From NCBI GenBank assembly GCA_038087875.1, contig CM075988.1, forward strand, positions 19,470,001 through 19,534,000: a stretch of 64,000 nt of DNA. Reading direction: 5' to 3'. Numbering within the stretch: the first letter of the stretch is position 1; each line of letters opens with the position of its first letter. The notes below the pieces were generated by a model. It had not been told where the DNA came from and did no database searches. It saw only the letters and a list, made by a program, of their open reading frames with translations. Made by a program: the position numbers and the translations under genes. Positions 18,700 through 64,000 of this stretch are shown piece by piece. The DNA comes from Malacoraja senta. Taxonomy: Eukaryota.

Positions 18700-19220
18700 T
18701 TGTGTACAGGAAGGATATTGGAGGCTTTGGAAAGGGTGCAAAGGAGGTTAACCAGAATGATGCCTGGATCTGGAGCTATTAGCTGCAGGGAGTGGTTAGA
18801 CAGACTTGATTGTTTTCTCTGGAAAGCCAGAGGTTGCCGGAGACCTGCTAGAAATATATAAAATTATGAGAAGCGTAGATAGCATAGGCATTCAGATCCT
18901 ATTTCCCAGGGTGGAAATATCAAACACCAGTGGGGAGAGCTTTAAGGCGAGAGGGGCAATGTTTAAAGGAGATATGCAGGGCAGGTTTTTTTACACAGAG
19001 GGTGTTGGGTGCATGGAACACGTTGCCAGGGGTGGTGGTGGAGGCAAATACGACAGTGGCTTTAAGAGACTTTTGGATAGGCACATGGATATGCAGGGAA
19101 TGGATGGATATTGATTATGTGATGGCAGATAAAGGTTGGTCTTGGCATCTTGTTTGGCACAGACATTGTGGGCCGAAGGGCCCGGTACCTGTCTTGTTCT
19201 ATGTTCTATGTTTTATGTTC
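18700..19220 (+). mobile_element. CR1 LINE 3' fragment
   Basis: Peptides ALERVQRRLTRMMPG and FFTQRVLGAWNTLP; tail (TTCTATG)n. Confidence 0.85.
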
Positions 19221-22405: not shown

Positions 22406-23384
22406 GACTAAGTTCAATTTTTTATTACATTGTGAAGTAAATAATATTAAGTCAAAAAATGGCAGTAACACAGAATGAGAGTGTATAAATGAGAATTTTA
22501 TTAATCTACTAATTTATTCCACATTTCTTGCTTAATAGGTTGAATTTGCAAAGGTCAAGCATCCTTAACAACACAGAGTGGATGATTTGATGTGAAGTAC
22601 TTCAGGAGCTCTGACCATGATATCCATCTAACACTGCAATCCATCCGGATGACATGACATCCTGCCGATAGTAGGTCTGTTTAAAATATTGCCCTTAGAT
22701 CATCTATTGTTATCATTTTGCTATTATTAACCATATAATACATTGCTTTTTTTTTAAATTAACAAGCATTCCTTACAAGTTGAGACACAAGGAACTGGAA
22801 TCTTGAACAAAGCACCAAGTGCTGGAGGAACTCAGTGGGTCAGACAGCATTTGTGGAAGGAATGGACTGACGATGTTTCAGGTCCTGACCCTTCTCCAGA
22901 CTGATGAATTGTCCATTTCACTTCAAAGATGCTGTCTGACTCGCTGAGTTCCTCCAGCACTGTGTTTTAGTATCTTGGCAGTGGTTTGGGTTTCCGACTA
23001 AGCCTCAGGGCTGCCAACTCTCACGCTTTCAGCGTGAGAATCACGCTTTGGAGCAAATTCTCACGCCCACACGCTCATGACCGAGTTCTCACGCTGAGTT
23101 CAGTCCCTGCACAGTTTGTCCCTTTGTGCCGCGTTCCAGGGATCTGCACGGTCTGGCGAAGCGCGTCGGTTGCCGGCTGTGAGTGACGTCGCGTCTCTTC
23201 TCTCCTGGTTGGATTTGCAGCCGCCGGGTGTCAGCAGCTCTATGTGCCGGCTGTGAGCGCTGCGCTGCCAGCCGCCGCTGCAGCCTCGCTCCCTCCCTCC
23301 CTCCTGCCCTTCAACTCACACGGCAGCGCCAGCGGCGCCAATCCACGCTACACCGTGTCCGCCAGACTCCCCATTGGGCGGCCG

Positions 23385-24000: not shown

Positions 24001-24332
24001 TTATCACATCCTGGTCTTAGACAGGGCTGCCAACTCTCACGCTTTGAGAGTGAGAGTCACGCATTTCAGCCAATGCTCATGCTGATGACAGAATTCTCAC
24101 CCTGTCTTCAGTCCCTGCACAGTTTGTCTCTTTTGCGCCACATCACAGCGATCTGTGCAGTCTGGGGAAGCGCGTCAGTTGGCGGCTGTGAGTGACGTAG
24201 CATCTCTTCTCTTCTCTTCTTTCTTGGTTGGATGTGCAGCCGCCGACAACATGAAGCAGCCGGAGATAGAACTAACCAGGTGAATTGGTTGTATAACATG
24301 GGGGGGACCACAATGAGGCCAAACATCTAGGA

Positions 24333-24530: not shown

Positions 24531-25249
24531 CAAATTGGGCCAGCCATGTACATGTTGTATAACTCTGACTCTATGCAGATCTGAATGGGCTTAGAATGAC
24601 CAAGCAAAATTACCCTCACTTTCCCCATTTTGATTCTTGAGATTAATATCCCTTTGCTCTGTTAACAGCGTTAAAGTACTTACGAGGTAGAGTCAGGAAA
24701 GGGAACATGTTATTTTCTTTTAGTTTGCTTTAATTTGTTAGTTGATTTTTTGTTGACTGCCATAATTTCTGAAATGGTCTTAATGTAACTTAACTGTTAT
24801 AAAGCAGTAATAAGTGATTTTTGTCCAAACAATTGGAACTTGCATAAAATGTTTGCATTATTAGCAGGGCTGCCAACTCTCACGCATTGAGTGTGAGACT
24901 CACGCATTTCACAAAACTCTCATGCTCTCACGCTGATCACAAAATTATATAATGAGAATAGGACCTGTTTTTGCTTAACAAATAGTGTAGGAAGGAATTG
25001 CAGATGCTGGTTTAAACTGAAGATAGACACTAAAAACTAGAAAACTCAGCAGGACAGGCAGCATCTCTGGAGAGAAAGAATGGGTGATGTTTCAAGTCGA
25101 GAACGTCAGCCTGAAGAGGTTGAAAACCAGCCATAAAACACAATGACTGGACATGTGTGTTATCCAACTAAGGGCAGAAATCAGAATCATGTGTTCATCT
25201 TTATTCACATGACACCATAATAAATATATTACAGAAAAAATAATTTAAT

Positions 25250-30909: not shown

Positions 30910-31820
30910 AGATACAGCATGGAAACAGGCCCTTCGGCCAACCCAGTCCTCGCCAACCCCATTTGATTACTCGTTTATATTAGTTTCTGTGTAATGCTGC
31001 TTTTGCATCCACTCCCTACACACTGGGGGCAATTTACAGAGCCCAATTAACCAACAAACCCGCACATCTTTGGGAAATACATGGAGGAAATCCACGCGGT
31101 CACAGGGAGGACGTGCAGGCTCCACACAGACAGCATCTGATGTCAGGATCGAACATAGAAACATAGAAAATAGGTGCAGGAGTAGGCCATTTGGCACTTC
31201 GAGCCTGCACCGCCATTCGATATGATCATGGCTGATCATCCAACTCAGTATCCTGTACCTGCTTTCTCTCCATACCCCCTGATCCCTTTAGCCACAAGGG
31301 CCACATCTAACTCCCTCTTAAATATAGCCAATGAACTGGCCTCAACTACATTCTGTGGCAGAGAATTCCAGAGATTCACCACTCTCTGTGTAAAAAATGT
31401 TTTTCTCATCTCAGTCCTAAAAGATTTCCCCTTTATCCTTAAACTGTGATCCCTTGTCTGGACTTCCCAACATCGGGAACAATCTTCCTGCATCTAGCCT
31501 GTCCAACCCCTTAAGAATTTTGTACGTTTCTATAAGATCCCCCTCAATCTTCTAAATTCTAGCGAGTACAAGCCGAGTCTATCCAGTCTTTCTTCATATG
31601 AAAGTCCTGACATCCCAGGAATCAGTCTGGTGAACCTTCTCTGTACTCCCTCTATGGCAAGAATGTCCTTCCTCAGATTAGGAGACCAAAACTGTACGCA
31701 ATACTCTAGGTTTGGTCTCACCAAGACCCTGTACAACTGCAGTAGAACCTCCCCGCCTCCTATACTCAGATCTCTGGCTCTGTGAGGCAGCAGCTCTACC
31801 AGCTGTTCCACTGTGCCGCC
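30910..31820 (-). mobile_element. HE1-like SINE split by a CR1 insertion
   Basis: SINE body at 30910-31153 and head at 31769-31820. Confidence 0.8.
31154..31768 (-). mobile_element. Young CR1 LINE 3' fragment
   Basis: Nearly identical to ~63320-63929 ([27 protein letters not shown]...). Confidence 0.92.
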
Positions 31821-33640: not shown

Positions 33641-34502
33641 GAAAACAAAAAGATTTCGGACAATAGATTCATTCAGGACTGGGTATTTTAATGAAAGTGC
33701 ACGGTGGGGCAGGAATACATCCTTGGGTGCTTCTGCTAGGATCATCGTCCAAATCTATAGCTCCCTGCAATTAGTGACGTAAGTAGATAAAGTGGTAAGA
33801 AAGAGTATGGTGTACTTGGCCTCATTGGTAGGGGTATCAAGTGTAAAGGTCGGAAACTCATGTGTTGCAGCTTTATAAAACATTCATTAGGCTGCACTTG
33901 GAGTATTGCAAGTAGTTCTGTTTGCTCCATTACAGGGAGGATGTGGAGGCTTTGGAGAGGGTGCAGAAGAGACCACCTGGTTTGGTTGGTGTTAAACATA
34001 AGAAGAGGTCAGACAAACCTGGATTGTTTCTCTTGAGCATCAGAGGTTGAGGGGAGACCTCAGAGAAGTATATAAAATTATAAGAGGCACAGATAGGGTA
34101 GACAGTCAGAACCATTTTTCCAGGGTGGAAATGTCATTGACTATGGCATTGCATTGTGGTCTGAGAAGGAAAGGTTAAAGTAAATGTGCAGAGCGTAGTG
34201 GGTGCCTGGAATGTGCTGCCAGGAGTGGTGGAAGAGGTAGATCTGATAGTTAAATTGAAGCTTTTAGAAAGACACTAGACTAAGTGGGACCCATTGGGTC
34301 CCATGTTCACACGGGAAGGCTGGTCCCCCAACACAATATTCCACCTCTCCACCAATTCCAATATTGGTGGCCAGTGGGGGGGCTTTCTGGAGCGCTGGTA
34401 TGGGTTCTTGGGGTGGCAGCACAGTCCTCAAGCCTAATGTGCTGGCAGCTCACTCACGGCTGGAGGGCTGGCAGTTGACTCACGGCTATTCCTTGAAATT
34501 CC

Positions 34503-34895
34503 ATTTCAAGCAGAGTGCAAGGCCACCAAATTCAATCCATTTCCCTACCATTTCAAGCAGGGTGCAAGGCCACCAAATTCAAGTGCAGTTTCTTACCTCT
34601 TCAAGCAGGGTGCAAGGCCACAAAATTCAAGTGCAGTTTCATACCACTTCAAGCAGGGTGCAAGGCCACCAAATTCAGGTTCAGTTTCCTACCACTTCAA
34701 GCAGGGTGCAAGGCCACCGAATTCAATTGCAGTTTCCAACCACTTCAAGCAGGGTGCAAGACCACCAAATTCAAGTGCAGTTTCATACCATTCAAGGAGG
34801 GTGCAAGGCCACCAAATTCAAATGCAGTTTCATACCATTTCATACAGGGTGCAAGGCCACCACATTCAAATGCAGTTTCATACCATTTCAAGCAC
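34503..34895. repeat. 48-bp minisatellite, ~8 copies, inside the Helitron
   Basis: Unit TTCAAGCAGGGTGCAAGGCCACCAAATTCAAGTGCAGTTTCATACCAC. Confidence 0.92.
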
Positions 34896-35279
34896 GGTGA
34901 AACCACCATAAAACCACACAAAACACCACACTCACAGTCCAGTAGACATTCAGTGTGTTCAGTTGATTCACAGCTCAGACAGAGTTGTGACCTCTCCCTC
35001 CCCCATCATACAGAGACTGAGCCACACCCACACTTCCGGTTTTATAATACCTCCCCCTTCCACCGGAAAAGGTGTGGCCTTCATGGCGTGATTGACGGGA
35101 GAGAGATTCTCAACATTTTTTAACACTAATAACACATTTATTTTTCATTGATGGGAAGAATCCCCTGCACCTGATCAGCGGAGGGGGACTGAGTAAGATG
35201 GGCAAAAATCACAGCCTTAAGTGGTAGCGTTTTACCTAAAATCAATATAGTGCAAACAGAAAGTTGTCAAGTTTAGACG

Positions 35280-35825
35280 TTGCAGTGCCTTTTCACTTCA
35301 ACCCAAAACCCACCCAAACAACCATTTGCAGTGCATTTTCACTTCTACCCAAACAACCATTTGCAGTGCATTTTTATTTCAACCCAAACAACCATTTGCA
35401 GTGCATTTTTACTTCAACCCAAACAGCCATTTGCAGTGCATTTTACTTCAACCCAAACCCCTCCCCAAACAACCCTTTGCAGTGCCTTTTCACTTCAACC
35501 CCCCCCCCCAAAAAACTACCCTTTGCAGTGCATTTTTACTTCAACCCAAATGACCATTAGCAGTGCATTTTTACTCAACCCAAACGACCATTAGCAGTGC
35601 ATTTTTACTTCAACCCAAATGATGACCAGCAGTGCATTTTTACTTCAACCCAAATGACCATTAGCAGTGCATTTTTACTTCAACCCAAACGACCATCAGC
35701 AGTGCATTTTACTTCAACCCAAACGACCATCAGCAGTGCATTTTTACTTCAACCCAAACGACCATCAGCAGTGCATTTTTACTTCAACCCAAACGACCAT
35801 CAGCAGTGCATTTTTACTTCAAATC
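35280..35825. repeat. ~35-bp minisatellite, ~15 copies, inside the Helitron
   Basis: Unit AGTGCATTTTTACTTCAACCCAAACGACCATCAGC. Confidence 0.92.
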
Positions 35826-36974
35826 AACCATATTTTTCATTTTCAAACCACATTAAGGGCACTCACAGTTGAGTAGACATGTGTTCAGTGTTATTCAGAG
35901 CGACGTGAACCTCTCGCTTCCTCCATCTTGCAGAGACTGAGTGAGGCACACCACTTCCGGGTTTTATAGTCCCACCCCCCTCCCACCAGCAGGGGCAGGT
36001 GAGAGAATGGCAAAAAAATAAAAACATTAATATGTCTCTGATTTTTCATTGATGGGAAAAATCCTCCAGTCCCGAAAGGGGGAGGGGGGCTCTGAGCGAG
36101 GTGGCCAAAAATTACGGCCGTAGGTGGCGGCGTTCTCTCGGAAATCACGCCACAGCGAGCCAAAAGCGGTCAAGATCAGAGTTTTAGTAATATAGATAGA
36201 TAGATAGATAGATATGGATATGCAGGGAATGGAGGGATATGGATCACATGAAGGCAGAGGAGATTAGTTTAACTAGGCATCATGTTCAGCATAGGATGAA
36301 GGATTGCACCTCCATTTGATGTTTCCACTTGCAATGGCAGGCAATAGCAGCAACAGCAATTGTTTGTGTCCCCTACCTACTTGCGTTTGAAATATACCTG
36401 GAATTTAAGGACTGACTGACAGTAACATCCTCTTTCATTGCCAGAAAATGATGGCATCATTTATCTTGCAACACACCATCAGATATGTAATTCTTCATAG
36501 ACTGTGCAAAAAAACAAACAGGAGATGCTCCAAAAGTTTGCCTGACTAAATTATTGATTTTATGTAGAATAAATAGGCTGTACATAGATAACACCTATTA
36601 GCTGGAAGAAAGGAGAGGGGGGGGAATAAAAGAATTTGCTTCGAGCCAGGGGAAAAGAAAACCAATTGAGGAAGTAAAAAGAATGGTTTGCGTTAACCAA
36701 ACATTGTTTCAGCTTTGAGGAACCAGGAAGACGCCATTCAGCGCATCAAGCCTGTCCCCCATTCAGTGGGATAGTGGCTGATCATTCACCCAACACCATA
36801 TCTGTCTTTTCTCTTCAATAACACTTAAGTTATTTACACAGAGAGTGGTGGGTGCCTGGAACAAGCTGCCAGTGATTGTGGTGGAGGTAGATATGATAGT
36901 GTCATTAAAGTTTTTAGTTGGATGTGGATATGCAGGGAATGGAGGCAGCTAGAGCACATGCAGGCAGAAGACAG

Positions 36975-40121: not shown

Positions 40122-40688
40122 CTAGCAGAATTGGGAGAATTCAACGTTCAGGCCACCAGGATGTAGACTGCCCAAGCGGAATATGAGGTGCATTTCCTCC
40201 AATTTACGGTGTTGCTCGCTGTGGCCATGGAGGAGACCCAGGACAGAGAGGTCAGATACGGAATGGGAGGGGGAGTTGAAGTGCTGAGCCACCGGGAGTT
40301 CAGGTTGGTTATTGCGGACCGACCGGAGGTGTTCGGCGAAACGATCGCCAAGCCTCCGCTTGGTCTCACCGATGTAGATCAGCTGGCATCTAGAGCAGCG
40401 AATGCAATAGATGAGGTTGGAGGAGATGCAGGTGAACCTCTGTCGCACCTGGAACGACTGCTTGGGTCCTGGAATGGAGTGGAGGGGGGAAGTGAAGGGA
40501 CAAGTGTTGCATCTCTTGCGGTTGCAAGGGAAAGTACCAGGGGAGGGGGTGGTATGGGAGGGAAGGGAAGAATTGACAAGGGAGTTACGGAGGGAGCGGT
40601 CTTTGCGGAAGGCAGACATAGGGGGAGATGGGAAGATGTGGCGAGTGGTGGGGTCACGTTGGAGGTGGCGGAACTGACGGAGGATCAC
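40122..40688 (-). CDS. Penelope-like ORF C-terminus: Cys-rich linker plus GIY-YIG endonuclease (partial)
   Basis: CNRKRCNTC, FTCISSNLIYCIRCSRCQLIYIGETKRRLGDRFAEH, VAQHFN..H, terminal PGGLN. Confidence 0.9.
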   Translation of the reverse strand: MILRQFRHLQRDPTTRHIFPSPPMSAFRKDRSLRNSLVNSSLPSHTTPSPGTFPCNRKRCNTCPFTSPLHSIPGPKQSFQVRQRFTCISSNLIYCIRCSRCQLIYIGETKRRLGDRFAEHLRSVRNNQPELPVAQHFNSPSHSVSDLSVLGLLHGHSEQHRKLEEMHLIFRLGSLHPGGLNVEFSQFC

Positions 40689-40737
40689 TTGTTGTATGTG
40701 ACGGCTGGTGGGGTGAAAGGTGAGGACTACAAACCTA

Positions 40738-41022
40738 GTTCAGTTTAGAGATACAGCACAGGAACAGGTCCTTCTGCCCACCGAGTCCACGCCGACCAGT
40801 GATCTCTGCACACTAACGCCATCCTACACCCACTAGGGACAATTTGCAATCATACCAAGCCAACTAACCTACAAACCTGCCGGTCTTTGGAATGTCGGAG
40901 GAAACCGAGCACCCGATCAAAACCTACGCAGTCACAGGGAGAAGGTATAAACTCCGTACAGACAGCACCTGTAGTCAAGATCAACCCGGATCTCTGCCGC
41001 TTTAAGGCAGCAACTCTGCCGC
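40738..41022 (-). mobile_element. HE1-like SINE
   Basis: Reverse-complement SINE; its tail is adjacent to the Penelope insertion site. Confidence 0.85.
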
Positions 41023-45907: not shown

Positions 45908-46377
45908 GATACATAGATACATAGAAAATAGGTGCAGGAGTAGGCCATTCAGCCCTTCGAGCCTGCACCGCCATTCAATATGATCATGGCTGATCATCCA
46001 ACTCAGTATCCCGTACCTGCCTTCTCTCCATACCCCCTGATCCCTTTAGCCACAAGGGCCACATCTAACTCCCTCTTAAATATAGCCAATGAACTGGCCT
46101 CAACTACCCTCTGTGGCAGAGAGTTCCAGAGATTCACCACTCTCTGTGTGCAAAAGTTTTTTCTCATCTCAGTCTTAAAGGATTTCCCCCTTATCCTTAA
46201 GCTGTGACCCCTTGTCCTGGACTTCCCCAACATCGGGAAAAATCTTCCTGCATCTAGCCTGTCCAACCCCATAAGAATTTTGTACGTTTCTATAAGATCC
46301 CCTTTCAATCTCCTAAATTCTAGCAAGTATAAGCCAAGTCTATCCAGTCTTTCTTCATATGAAAGACCTGACATCCA
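45908..46377 (-). mobile_element. Young CR1 LINE 3' fragment inserted in a Rex1/Babar-like 3' UTR
   Basis: ORF 46003-46374 is near-identical to the C-terminus of 62276-63838. Confidence 0.92.
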
Positions 46378-59221: not shown

Positions 59222-59645
59222 CAAGGCCACCAAACTCAATTTCACAGCATTTCAGGCAAAGTGCAGGCCACCAAACTCAATTTCACAGCATTTCAAGCAG
59301 AGTGCAGGCCACCAAACTCAATTTCACAGCATTTCAGGCAGAGTGCAGGCCACTAAACTCAATTTCACAGCATTTCAGGCAGGGTGCAGGCCACTAAACT
59401 CAATTTCACAGCATTTCAGGCAGAGTGCAGGCCACCAAACTCAATTTCACCACATTTCAGGCAGAGTGCATGCCACCAAACTCAATTTCACAGCATTTCC
59501 AGCAGAGTGCAGTCACCAAACTCAATTTCATAGCATTTCAAGCAGAGTGCAGGCCACTAAACTCAATTTCACAGCATTTCAAGCAGAGTGCAGGCCACCA
59601 AACTCAATTTCACAGCATTTCATGCAGAGTGCAGGCCACCAAATT
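59222..59645. repeat. 41-bp minisatellite, ~10 copies
   Basis: Unit CAGAGTGCAGGCCACCAAACTCAATTTCACAGCATTTCAGG. Confidence 0.93.
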
Positions 59646-60005
59646 GCCAAACAACTCATTGCATTGTCATTAAGGGCTAACAAATAATTTATTGCTAGTA
59701 CATTACAGACTCATAGTCCAAGCATTACAGCTTAGAATCACAGTTGTGGACTCTCCCTCGCGATCTTCCAGAGTGACTGACTCACGTCCAAGCATCCGGG
59801 GTTTTATAGATCTGCCCCTCCCCCTCTCCCCCCCGGAGGCGAGAGGACCAATCAGCTGATCTCAGGATTTTTTTAACACTCTGAACTTTTTTATTTTTCA
59901 TTGATCGGAAAAGTCCTCGGGGCTGCCTCAGCAAAGGAGGACTGTGAGTAAGACCTCCATCTGGTCAGGGAGAGCGAGGAAGTCATAGAGAGAAGTTACA
60001 GAGAG

Positions 60006-60767
60006 GTGGTCACTCCAAGACCCGAGGAGGCAGGCAAGTGGGTCACAGTTAGGAGGGGCAAGGGGCAGAGGCAGGGACTAGAGAGTACCCCAGTGGCTGT
60101 ACACCTTTACAATAAGTACTCCTGTTTGAGTACTGTTGGGGGGGACAGCCTACCTGGGGGTAGCAACAGCGGCAGGGCCTCCGGTACAGAGACCGGCCCT
60201 GTTGCTCAGAAGGGTAAGGAAAAGAAGAGGAGGGCAGTAGTAATAGGGGACTCTATAGTTAGGGGGTCAGGTAGGCGATTCTGTGGATGCAGTCAGGAGA
60301 CCCGGATGGTAGTTTGCCTCCCTGGTGCCAGGGTCTGGGATGTGTCTGAACGTGTCCAAGATATCCTGAAATGGGAGGGAGCGGAGCCCGAGGTCGTGGT
60401 ACATATAGGTACCAATGACATAAGTAGAAAAAGAGAAGAGGTCCTGAAAGGAGAATTTAGGGAGTTAGGAGGAGAGTTAAGGAGAAGGACCGCAAAGGTA
60501 ACAATCTCGGGATTACTGCCTGTGCCACGCGACAGTGAGAGTAGGAATGGAGCGAGGTGTAGGATAAATGCGTGGATGAAGGACTGGTGCAGAGGGCAAG
60601 GATTCAAGTTTCTGGATCATTGGGACCTCTTTTGTGGAAGGTGTGACCTGTACAAAAAGGACGGGTTGCACTTGAACCCGAGGGGGACCAATATCTTGGC
60701 AGGGAGATTTGCAAAGGCTACTGCGGAGACTTTAAACTACAACGGTTGGGGGGAGGGACTCAAATAG
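60006..60767 (+). CDS. CR1 ORF1 C-terminal part, SGNH/GDSL-like esterase domain
   Basis: Motifs VIGDSIVRG, CLPGA, HIGTND, DGLHLN. Confidence 0.9.
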   Translation: MVTPRPEEAGKWVTVRRGKGQRQGLESTPVAVHLYNKYSCLSTVGGDSLPGGSNSGRASGTETGPVAQKGKEKKRRAVVIGDSIVRGSGRRFCGCSQETRMVVCLPGARVWDVSERVQDILKWEGAEPEVVVHIGTNDISRKREEVLKGEFRELGGELRRRTAKVTISGLLPVPRDSESRNGARCRINAWMKDWCRGQGFKFLDHWDLFCGRCDLYKKDGLHLNPRGTNILAGRFAKATAETLNYNGWGEGLK

Positions 60768-60783
60768 AGAAAGCTAGTAGACA

Positions 60784-62249
60784 ATGTGTGAGGCAGGAGG
60801 CAGAGAAGGGAAGCACGCAGACCCAACATGTAGGGGGGAAAGAAGAAAAAATAATAAACAAAGAATAAGAGGTGGTGGGTTTCTTAAATGTGTGAGCAGA
60901 GAGACAGAGGGGTGTAAAATGAGGGTAGAAGCAATAGGTAGCAAGGTGAAAAGTAAAAGTGGCAGGCAGACAAATCCAGGGCAAAAATCAAAAAGGGCCA
61001 CTTTTCAACATAATTGTATAAGGGGTAAGAGCATTGTAAAAACAAGCCTGAAGGCTTTGTGTCTCAATGCAAGGAGCATTTGTAATAAGGTGGATGAGTT
61101 GAATGTGCAGATAGCTATTAATGATTGTGATATAGCTGGGATCACGGAGACATGGCTCCAGGGTGACCAAGGCTGGGAGCTGAACATCCAGGGATATTCA
61201 ATATTCAGGATGGATAGACAGAAAGGAAAAGAAGGTGGCATAGCGTTGCTGATTAGAGAGGAGATTAACGCAATGAAAAGGAAGGACATTAGCTTGGAGG
61301 ATGTGGAATCGATATGGGTAGAGCTGCGAAACACTAAGGGGCAGAAAACGCTAGCAGGTGTTGTGTACAGGCCACCTAACAGTAGTAGTGGAGTTGGGGA
61401 TGGCATTAAACAGGAAATTAGAAATGCGTGCAACAAAGGTAAAACAGTTATAATGGGTGACTTCAATCTACATATAGATTGGGTGAATCAAATTGGCAGG
61501 GGTGCTGAGGAAAAGGATTTCTTGGAATGTATGCGGGATAGTTTTCTAAACCAACATGTAGAGCAACCAACGAGAGAGCAGGCTATTCTAGACTGGGTTT
61601 TGAGTAATGAGGAAGGGTTAGTTAGCAGTCTTGTTGTGCGTGGCCCCTTGGGCAAGAGTGACCATAATATGGTTGAGTTCTTCATTAGGATGGAGAGTGA
61701 CATTGTTAATTCAGAAACAAGGGTTCTGAACATAAAGAAAGGTAACTTTGAGGGTATGACGTGAATTGGCCAGGATTGACTGGCAATTGATTTAAAGACT
61801 GCATGGATGAACTACAACAATTGTTCATCCCAGTTTGGCAAAAGAATAAATCAGGGAAGGTAGTGCATCCGTGGATAACAAGGGAAATCAGAGATAGTAT
61901 CAAAACAAAAGATGAAGCGTACAAATTAGCCAGAAAAAGCAGCCTACCAGACTGGGAGAAATTCAGATTCCGGCAGAGGAGGACAAAGTGCTTAATTAGG
62001 AAAGGGAAAATAGATTATGAAAGAAAACTGGCAGGGAACATAAAAACTGACTGCAAAAGTTGTTATACATATGTGAATAGAAAGAGATTAGTTAAAACAA
62101 ATGTAGGTCCCTTGCAGTCAGAAACAGGTGAATTGATCATGGGGAACAAGGACATGGCAGACCAATTGAATAACTACTTTGGTTCTGTCTTCACTGTGGA
62201 AGACATAAATAATCTGCCGGAAATAGCAAGGGACCTACATTTGTTTTAA
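60784..62249 (+). pseudogene. CR1 ORF2 N-terminal part (APE endonuclease plus linker), frameshifted
   Basis: LNARS, ITETWL, VYRPPN, MGDFN, SDHN. Frame breaks near 61760-61800 and 62235-62270. Confidence 0.9.
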
Positions 62250-62275
62250 CTAATGGAGTTAATGAGTCAAATGAG

Positions 62276-63838
62276 ATGGAGGAACTGAGTGAAATCCAGG
62301 TTAGCCAGGAAGTGGTGTTAGGTAAAGTGAATGGATTAAAGGCCGATAAATCCCCAGGGCCAGATAGGCTGCATCCCAGAGTACTTAAGGAAGTAGCCCC
62401 AGAAATAGTGGATGCATTAGTGATAATTTTTCAAAATTCCTTAGATTCTGGAGTAGTTCCTGAGGATTTGAGGGTAGCTAATGTAACCCAACTTTTTAAA
62501 AAGGGAGGGAGAGAGAAAACGGGGAATTACAGACCAGTTAGTCTAACATCGGTAGTGGGGAAACTGCTAGAGTCAATTATTAAAGATGGGATAGCAGCAC
62601 ATTTGGAAAGTGGTGAAATCATTGGACAAAGTCAGCATGGATTTACGAAAGGTAAATCATGTCTGACGAATCTTATAGAATTTTTCGAGGATGTAACTAG
62701 TAGAGTGGATAAGGGAGAACCAGTGGATGTGTTATATCTGGACTTTCCGAAGGCTTTCGACAAGGTCCCACATAAGAGATTAGTATACAAACTTAAAGCA
62801 CACGGTATTAGGGGTTCAGTATTGATGTGGATAGAGAACTGGCTGGCAAACAGGAAGCAAAGAGTAGGAGTAAACGGGTCCTTTTCAGAATGGCAGGCAG
62901 TGACTAGTGGGGTACCTCAAGGCTCAGTGCTAGGACCCCAGCTATTTACAATATATATTAATGATTTGGACGAGAGAATTGAATGCAACATCTCCAAGTT
63001 TGCGGATGACACGAAGCTGGGGGGCAGTGTTAGCTGTGAGGAGAATGCTAGGAGGCTGCAAGGTGACTTGGATAGATTGGGTGAGTGGGCAAATGCATGG
63101 CAGATGCAGTATAATGTGGATAAATGTGAGGTTATCCACTTTGGTGGCAAAAATAGGAAAGTAGACTATTATCTAAATGGTGGCCGATTAGGAAAAGGGG
63201 AGATGCAACGAGACCTGGGTGTCATGGTACACCAGTCATTGAAAGTAGGCATGCAGGTGCAGCAGGCAGTGAAGAAAGCGAATGGTATGTTAGCATTCAT
63301 AGCAAAAGGATTTGAGTATAGGAGCAGGGAGGTTCTACTGCAGTTGTACAGGGTCTTGGTGAGACGACACCTGGAGTATTGCGTACAGTTTTGGGCTCCA
63401 AATCTGAGGAAAGACATTCTTGCCATAGAGGGAGTACAGAGAAGGTTCACCAGACTGATTCCTGGGATGTCAGGACTTTCATATGAAGAAAGACTGGATA
63501 GACTCGGCTTGTACTCGCTAGAATTTAGCCGATTGAGGGGGGATCTTATAGAAACTTACAACATTCTTAAGGGATTGGACAGGCTAGATGCAGGAAGATT
63601 GTTCCCGATGTTGGGGAAGTCTAGGACAAGGGGTCACAGTTTAAGTATAAAGGGGAAATCCTTTAGGACCGAGATGAGAAAAACATTTTTCACACAGATA
63701 GTGGTGAATCTCTGGAACTCTCTGCCACAGAAGGTAGTTGAGGCCAGTTCATTGGCTATATTTAAGAGGGAGATAGATGTGGCCCTTGTGGCTAAAGAGA
63801 TCAGGGGGTATGGAGAGAAGGCAGGTACAGGATACTGA
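62276..63838 (+). CDS. CR1 ORF2 reverse transcriptase domain (open 520 aa, disconnected from the upstream part)
   Basis: PGPD, NYRPVSLTS, QHGF, LDFPKAFD, GVPQGSVLGP, FADD. Confidence 0.95.
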   Translation: MEELSEIQVSQEVVLGKVNGLKADKSPGPDRLHPRVLKEVAPEIVDALVIIFQNSLDSGVVPEDLRVANVTQLFKKGGREKTGNYRPVSLTSVVGKLLESIIKDGIAAHLESGEIIGQSQHGFTKGKSCLTNLIEFFEDVTSRVDKGEPVDVLYLDFPKAFDKVPHKRLVYKLKAHGIRGSVLMWIENWLANRKQRVGVNGSFSEWQAVTSGVPQGSVLGPQLFTIYINDLDERIECNISKFADDTKLGGSVSCEENARRLQGDLDRLGEWANAWQMQYNVDKCEVIHFGGKNRKVDYYLNGGRLGKGEMQRDLGVMVHQSLKVGMQVQQAVKKANGMLAFIAKGFEYRSREVLLQLYRVLVRRHLEYCVQFWAPNLRKDILAIEGVQRRFTRLIPGMSGLSYEERLDRLGLYSLEFSRLRGDLIETYNILKGLDRLDAGRLFPMLGKSRTRGHSLSIKGKSFRTEMRKTFFTQIVVNLWNSLPQKVVEASSLAIFKREIDVALVAKEIRGYGEKAGTGY

Positions 63839-64000
63839 GTTGGATGATCAGCCATGATCATATTGAATGGCGGTGCAGGCTCGAAGGGCCGAATGGCCTA
63901 CTCCTGCACCTATTTTCTATGTTTCTATGGCCAAAAATCTAGCGATATATGGTAGCGTTTTTTCTAAAATCAATATGCAGCGCAGACAGGAAGTGGTCAA

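Follow-up and report, generated by a model that had tools for sequence, protein, structure and literature searches.

Three diverged front ends of a non-autonomous Helitron family share a conserved promoter-like arrangement of motifs

Helitrons of the HLE1 group are characterized by a 5' TC, a 3' hairpin followed by CTRR, and insertion between A and T (PMC11417382). The same source counts 11,154 HLE1 copies in the batoid Leucoraja erinacea, 4,818 in Mobula birostris and 1,651 in Hypanus sabinus, and mentions Helitron-1/2_AmRa as listed in Repbase. In bats, the non-autonomous HelibatN3 of Myotis contains a promoter, a short first exon and a splice donor, which give it exon-trap potential (PMC4778049, PMC4224331). 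Bat Helitrons also gain new 3' ends beside 5'-truncated Helitrons (PMC4778049), and HelibatN539 is a compound Helitron (PMC4224331). Two elements of Xenopus are also relevant. HelenXT233 of X. tropicalis possesses a doubled, diverged left end consisting of two non-identical LTSs in direct repeat (PMC11417382), and the presumed promoter of the autonomous Heli1Xen1 of X. laevis is marked by ChIP peaks and accompanied by a 5' UTR (PMC12001565).

The locus described here lies in a 64,000-nt stretch of Malacoraja senta DNA (the whole stretch analysed, below called the window) and resembles each of these systems in part. It shares the TC, the hairpin with CTRR and the A-T insertion site with canonical HLE1 elements but is without the RepHel gene (PMC11417382). 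Like HelibatN3, it combines a predicted promoter, short first exon and donor in a non-autonomous Helitron; however, HelibatN3 captured the NUBPL promoter and its exon trapping has been shown, whereas the present unit runs on from the left end without a break, is represented in three lineages with 56–68% identity and is known from sequence motifs. As in the compound bat Helitrons, the 5' end of one element appears joined to the 3' end of another, with support from an empty site, but here both partners bring related front ends, so that the promoter-like unit is present twice. The doubled left end recalls HelenXT233, which in contrast is an autonomous HLE2 that uses both LTSs, while the present element is an HLE1 whose second front end has no terminus. 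In Heli1Xen1, likewise a vertebrate Helitron1, the presumed promoter and 5' UTR also lie at the 5' end (PMC12001565). Since promoter-bearing and compound Helitrons have been described in bats, the kind of element is already known. What is useful here is the footprint: three diverged front ends mark the exact bases of what is likely the Helitron's own promoter.

The coordinates of the features are collected in Table 1. The sequence at 34275–36212 starts with TC, ends in a hairpin with CTRR, is inserted between A and T and belongs to a dispersed family, which places it in HLE1; its termini and empty site bear out the assignment to Helitrons made in the earlier note. When the element is excised in silico, its two flanks together form a dispersed LINE-remnant repeat, which runs uninterrupted through the paralogues at 19087 and 27496, and the empty site rebuilt from these paralogues gives an A-T junction with no target-site duplication. 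The 3' hairpin has a fold z-score of only -1.0, computed for the 56-nt end alone. There is no long open reading frame (ORF) in the element and hence no RepHel transposase ORF, which makes it non-autonomous. Its order from 5' to 3' is terminus, module A, 35-bp minisatellite, module B, 48-bp minisatellite and a unique 3' part. Within the Helitron, the TC terminus has grown into a (TCTA)5 microsatellite at 36193–36212.

Table 1. Features of the Helitron, its second copy and the interrupting LINE (window coordinates)
Feature	Coordinates	Strand	Basis or detail
Complete non-autonomous Helitron (HLE1), best read as front end A combined with a 5'-truncated unit B	34275..36212	-	1938 bp; 5' TC, 3' hairpin + CTAG, empty site A-T
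5' terminus: (TCTA)5 then TATTACTAAAAC	36181..36212	-	sequence
3' end: 8-bp hairpin, 6 nt, CTAG (34275-34278)	34275..34303	-	sequence and fold
Module A: terminal region, promoter-like motifs, predicted first exon, donor	35861..36180	-	sequence comparison
Module B: second Helitron front end without extreme 5' terminus	34930..35279	-	sequence comparison
5' part of module C, truncated at the end of the window; 75 nt align with B at 80% identity	63927..64000	-	alignment
3' part of module C, with TATA 59802-59808, Inr 59775-59780, ATGAGT as dead donor 59709-59714, CCAAT near 59853	59709..59953	-
35-bp minisatellite behind module A	35280..35822	-
48-bp minisatellite behind module B; homologous to 41-bp unit of copy 2	34501..34899	-
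41-bp minisatellite of copy 2	59224..59643	-
TATA box A, TATAAAA, nt 245 of Helitron	35962..35968	-	motif search
TATA box B	35040..35046	-	motif search
Initiator-like TCAGTC A, A at 35938	35935..35940	-	motif search
Initiator-like TCAGTC B, A at 35018	35015..35020	-	motif search
ETS-like CCGGAAG in A	35954..35960	-	motif search
Predicted first exon A, 72 nt	35867..35938	-	motif positions
Donor-like ACT/GTGAGT in A, nt 347 of Helitron	35861..35866	-	motif search
Donor-like ACT/GTGAGT in B; predicted exon 34936-35018, 83 nt	34930..34935	-	motif search
CR1-type LINE inside module C	59954..63926	+	SGNH esterase ORF1, AP endonuclease, reverse transcriptase (541-aa RT frame)

A module of ~300 bp had been described as occurring twice in the Helitron and again in a second copy. 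Three homologous copies do exist (A and B in the complete element, C in the second copy), but it is the whole front end that is doubled and not an internal cassette. The alignment of A with B begins at about nt 30 of the Helitron, B missing just the terminus, and C resumes terminal-region sequence beyond the LINE that interrupts it; all three are therefore Helitron front ends that reach from the terminal region to the donor, a length of about 350 nt. As judged from these alignments, the repeated module consists of the first ~350 nt of the Helitron itself. Pairwise identities are 210/322 (65%) for A-B, 166/297 for A-C and 216/316 (68%) for B-C, with an overall range of 56–68%. Module B resembles C (68%) more than it does A (65%), and has its minisatellite in common with C, not with A. 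The 48-bp and 41-bp units behind B and C are homologous, as none of 2,000 shuffles scores as high, while homology of the 35-bp unit behind A to the 48-bp or the 41-bp unit is not significant (120/2,000 and 963/2,000 shuffles, respectively). A minisatellite does follow each module of the complete element, as reported before, 35-bp units after A and 48-bp units after B. The view of the module as a duplicated cassette did not survive these comparisons, given the greater likeness of B to C, their common minisatellite and the doubling of the entire front end. The reading that we prefer for the Helitron is that an intact A front end was fused to a 5'-truncated element of the B type; a single empty site shows that the two moved together as one unit. 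Divergence after an old duplication within the element would be expected to leave a similar picture.

All three modules contain, on the minus strand, TATAAAA followed by the Initiator-like (Inr) TCAGTC. Every coordinate given previously for TATAAAA (35968, 35046 and 59808) and for the A of the Inr (35938, 35018 and 59778) proved correct; TCAGTC of module C starts at 59780. The spacing from TATA to the Inr A is 30 nt in A, 28 nt in B and 30 nt in C, which is the spacing of a core promoter, the consensus TATA position being ~28–31 nt upstream of the Inr A. The ETS-type CCGGA(A/T)G just downstream of TATA was likewise found in 3/3 modules (CCGGAWG starting at 35960, 35039 and 59799), but shifted in place; for an ETS site, a position wedged between TATA and the start is unusual, and at the ETS-like word of A, CAGGAAG accounts for 73% of the depth placed from sequencing run X5. 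GTGAGT stands 72 and 83 nt downstream in A and B, and ATGAGT in the third copy, just as had been stated. In C this ATGAGT starts at 59714, its GT is lost, and the exon equivalent measures 64 nt. The YY1-like CAAGATGG claimed for one copy is present in only 1/3 modules, namely A (35930), so that it is no feature of the family, and about half of the plus-strand reads differ at 35923–35929.

The promoter, first-exon and donor motifs all lie inside the Helitron termini. A strict TATA with TCAKTY 25–34 nt away and a donor arose in 1/20,000 dinucleotide shuffles of A and 3/20,000 of B; with the looser human Inr BBCABW the corresponding counts were 12/20,000 and 28/20,000. The modules are homologous and do not represent three independent draws. 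In the whole window the strict TATA-Inr pair occurs four times, three of them inside modules A, B and C, and the loose pair occurs 29 times. A scan with a bacterial promoter model, which is not applicable to this DNA, returned no match. Module C has two sites of its own, absent from A and B: a CCAAT (NF-Y-like) box at 59846–59853, which precedes the Inr by ~70 nt, and an AP-1 site at 59778–59784 that overlaps the Inr. Module B, downstream of the donor of A, contains two acceptor-like sites and an AATAAA (35189, 35171 and 35142, minus strand), so that a transcript from A could splice and end within the Helitron.

The first exon had been considered non-coding, which is uncertain: although an exon is predicted as claimed, an in-phase ATG precedes the donor in each of the three modules (35880, 34949 and 59725, minus strand; 14, 14 and 11 nt ahead of it). 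The peptides from ATG to donor would be M-S-T-Q in A, M-S-T-G in B and M-L-G in C, each plus 2 nt, and the Kozak context is weak. A fourth variant of the module, seen in loose ends of RNA reads, has ACG where the modules have ATG, a difference that may be due to CpG decay. The ATG could represent the start of RepHel or of a captured gene.

The motifs had been said to persist in otherwise diverged modules, and a comparison of motif and flank conservation in the three modules of the window agrees. Among 291 gap-free columns of the alignment, 142 are identical in all three modules. The invariant columns include 7/7 of TATA, 6/6 of the Inr and 5/6 of the donor, that is 18/19, compared with 124/272 elsewhere (p = 1.5e-5 by Fisher's exact test); 133 of 200,000 random triples of windows of equal size do as well. 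The test comprises three aligned modules, and the motifs were chosen by a reader who had seen all three. With such an excess at a module identity of 56–68%, we consider the TATA-Inr-donor footprint real, and its conservation points to a core promoter and first exon that would have been under past selection. Constraint maintained through 32–44% divergence implies selection on lineages that kept transposing, and selection during the divergence of the family accounts for the invariant motifs better than neutral carriage does.

The longest block identical in 3/3 modules is not a core-promoter motif. This is the 13-nt ATCAATGAAAAAT (36041–36053, 35140–35152 and 59893–59905), located 85–106 nt upstream of TATA and overlooked in the earlier note; a site for an upstream factor and a transposase site are its candidate roles. 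Since neither this block nor several others further upstream belong to the core promoter, transposase binding may account for some of the constraint. In A, ATCAATGAAAAAT is part of an 8-bp palindrome (36040–36063); the palindrome folds only in module A and was rejected as the conserved feature.

The family is widely distributed in sequence archives. Of 34 words sampled from module A, 38–62% are present in 14 runs from 8 studies and 6 organisms, and in 7 studies and 5 organisms when the best holder is left out; no RNA run is listed among the holders. Reads of four runs were placed on 35823–36230 at 80% likeness, with 36183–36230, which takes in the 5' terminus, skipped as a repeat; the placement covers module A. 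Run X5, whose type is not on record and which was treated as DNA, contributed 7,850 contig pieces, the depth of which was not used as copy number. Only two of six runs with a small share, X15 and X16, were used; the RNA label given to them is conjectural, and X16 probably consists of DNA reads. The placed depth in X5 peaks over the donor and over Inr-ETS-TATA (1.0–1.4 M vs 0.06–0.34 M in the troughs), and also at 36089–36130. None of the 40 variants listed falls on TATA, Inr or donor; 137 more lie outside the listing.

The polyA run X22 (organism E, a carrier of the family; ~6% of the run read) placed 918 of 7,335,232 reads on the module A region. As 632 of them are less than 90% alike, the reads stem from other copies of the family. 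Their depth on both strands spans the whole module: 200–300 at 36075–36172, 344 and 328 immediately before the Inr, 251 and 174 beyond it, and 170 vs 156 across the donor. In this one library of fragmented RNA there is no pile-up of starts or ends over module A, and none of the six loose ends listed (38–124 reads each) lies at the donor; 344 further loose ends over all runs fall outside the listing. In 124 reads the sequence runs on upstream from 35979, beyond TATA (median 53 nt); 61 reads at 35895 represent a further variant with the donor hexamer kept and unspliced; and 78 reads pass from the intron into the minisatellite. The ratio of plus to minus first mates, in a library whose strandedness is not on record, is 1.3–2.2 upstream, 3.2–4.8 at 35935–36018, 2.0–2.9 in the exon and 1.5–1.6 in the intron, a small step at the donor. 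The plus excess peaks over and upstream of TATA, where it coincides with the rare variant 35950 A>G (123/253 plus reads, 2/71 minus reads, 4.6% of the X5 depth). Strand excess and variant together would fit a longer transcript that contains a single copy or a few. For module A, this polyA run showed neither starts at the Inr A nor, among the loose ends listed, splicing at GTGAGT. The proposal that the family may spread a Pol II promoter found no support in this weak test of one library, in which there is no start pile-up and the best-supported loose ends are unspliced at the donor or extend upstream of TATA. The X22 result speaks against widespread promoter activity in that sample, with activity possible at a minority of loci or in other tissues.

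We lean, with modest confidence, towards an origin of the unit from the Helitron itself. In an autonomous ancestor, the first 350 nt would have comprised a TATA-Inr promoter together with a short first exon that was spliced to RepHel. The A, B and C lineages would then have diverged while keeping the motifs, held in place by selection for transposase expression in autonomous masters as the spacers diverged by 32–44%. Internal deletion would have taken out the RepHel gene and passed the promoter and first exon of the parent transposase gene on to non-autonomous derivatives that kept the front end; minisatellites would have expanded in the former intron 1; and end bypass or composite transposition would have fused A and B, with B supplying the 3' end. 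That TATA and the donor fall at nt 245 and nt 347, in the region expected of a 5' promoter, argues for a native promoter, as do the donor hexamer kept in the fourth RNA variant and the X5 depth peaks over the donor and Inr-ETS-TATA. The presumed promoter of the autonomous Heli1Xen1 (PMC12001565) offers a precedent. The link of the modules to RepHel is one that we infer, and no Helitron Pfam family had a match among 149 scanned ORFs of the window (of 268 unmasked ORFs of at least 45 aa). Module C without its GT, the strongest conserved block outside the core promoter and the lack of a start pile-up in X22 count against a native promoter. We regard as rather doubtful a further possibility, namely that the TATA-Inr-donor unit was kept even in non-autonomous copies because transcription through the left end aids mobilisation, that compound elements stack two promoters, and that alternative first exons of host genes in germ line or embryo have arisen from thousands of copies. 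If true, a native vertebrate Helitron promoter would for the first time be mapped to the base, and promoters would have a way to disperse without capture.

The same unit could have come from the host, an ancestral non-autonomous Helitron having taken up a TATA promoter, first exon and donor behind its left terminus, from which A, B and C descend. The layout is that of HelibatN3, with promoter, few codons and splice donor (PMC4778049), Helitrons with captured promoters or 5' ends attain higher copy numbers (PMC4224331), and the in-phase ATG before the donor in all three modules would suit a captured gene. We nevertheless consider capture unlikely, if credible: homology is unbroken between the terminal region and the promoter part, the fourth variant carries ACG instead of ATG, and retention of the motifs through this divergence needs ongoing selection, to which a passenger promoter is not obviously exposed. 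The capture in bat style that had been proposed finds no support, homology reaching to within ~30 nt of the 5' terminus. Alternatively, the conserved blocks could be transposition signals bound by transposase or a host factor near the left end, their promoter look being partly coincidence. This would suit the 13-nt invariant run and the blocks at 36089–36130, which are not promoter motifs, the resemblance of TATAAAAC to the terminal CTAAAAC, the requirement for the LTS in Helraiser transposition (PMC4778049) and the absence of RNA starts over module A in X22. It is nonetheless improbable in our estimate, since what determines cleavage in Helraiser is confined to the terminal 40 bp (PMC4778049), far from nt 245–347, the palindrome folds in A alone, and the TATA-Inr spacing stays at 28–30 nt despite nearby indels, with a textbook donor after it, in an order that 1–3 of 20,000 shuffles reproduce. 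Pure chance, that is motif-like words in a repeat shared by descent only, could draw on the 29 loose TATA-Inr pairs and on there being only three aligned sequences; against 18/19 invariant motif columns and the rarity of random triples reaching that figure, it is very unlikely. Whichever origin applies, many copies might act as mobile promoters today, starting transcripts and splicing them into host exons. The motifs are intact in A and B and the first-mate ratio takes its small step at the donor, but the strand excess peaks over and upstream of TATA together with the rare variant, reads extend upstream beyond TATA and from the intron into the minisatellite, and no listed loose end of X22 lies at the donor. 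We therefore view such present-day activity as not probable.

Comparable mapping was sought in published work. A literature search, with subscription journals and Repbase reports mostly outside it, found no paper that maps TATA or Inr of a native Helitron promoter, and no mapping of core motifs of the Heli1Xen1 promoter was found in the available part of PMC12001565. Three motifs of the present element do not occur in the five supplementary files of that paper, nor do two motifs of the element in the available portion of the HELIANO supplement text (PMC11417382). A pattern scan yielded no true relative in viral and none in prokaryote genome contigs; its sole match, in a gene-dense metagenome contig (L001), shows no similarity past the motifs and is attributed to chance. 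If confirmed, the native promoter could provide a handle on the expression of Helitron transposase, and the family a large set of promoter-donor units to screen in transcriptomes of the lineage.

The second Helitron copy is interrupted by the LINE at 59954–63926, and its module continues at 63927–64000. No hairpin with CTRR was found within 3.2 kb past its 41-bp minisatellite, and nothing in this copy matches the unique 3' part of the complete Helitron. The LINE, which we take to be CR1 from its domain set, is nearly full length and precisely inserted; 3' fragments of the same type, 94–96% identical, lie at 31154–31756 and 45912–46376. About 40% of the window is self-repetitive. The 149 scanned ORFs (of 268 unmasked) include no host coding exon, their Pfam matches being retroelement domains and two weak ones below cut-off, and the window may therefore be intergenic or deep intronic. 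An Rfam match to sroE (18 bits vs a gathering threshold of 51) is ascribed to chance. An ORF fragment with a GIY-YIG domain just under the Pfam cut-off (40125–40739, minus strand) presumably belongs to a Penelope-like retroelement. A GC-rich stretch occurs twice, at 23000–23350 and 24020–24250, flanking a GT-rich microsatellite; both begin with CAGGGCTGCCAACTCTCACGC, which is also found at 24866, and they probably constitute another small repeat family.
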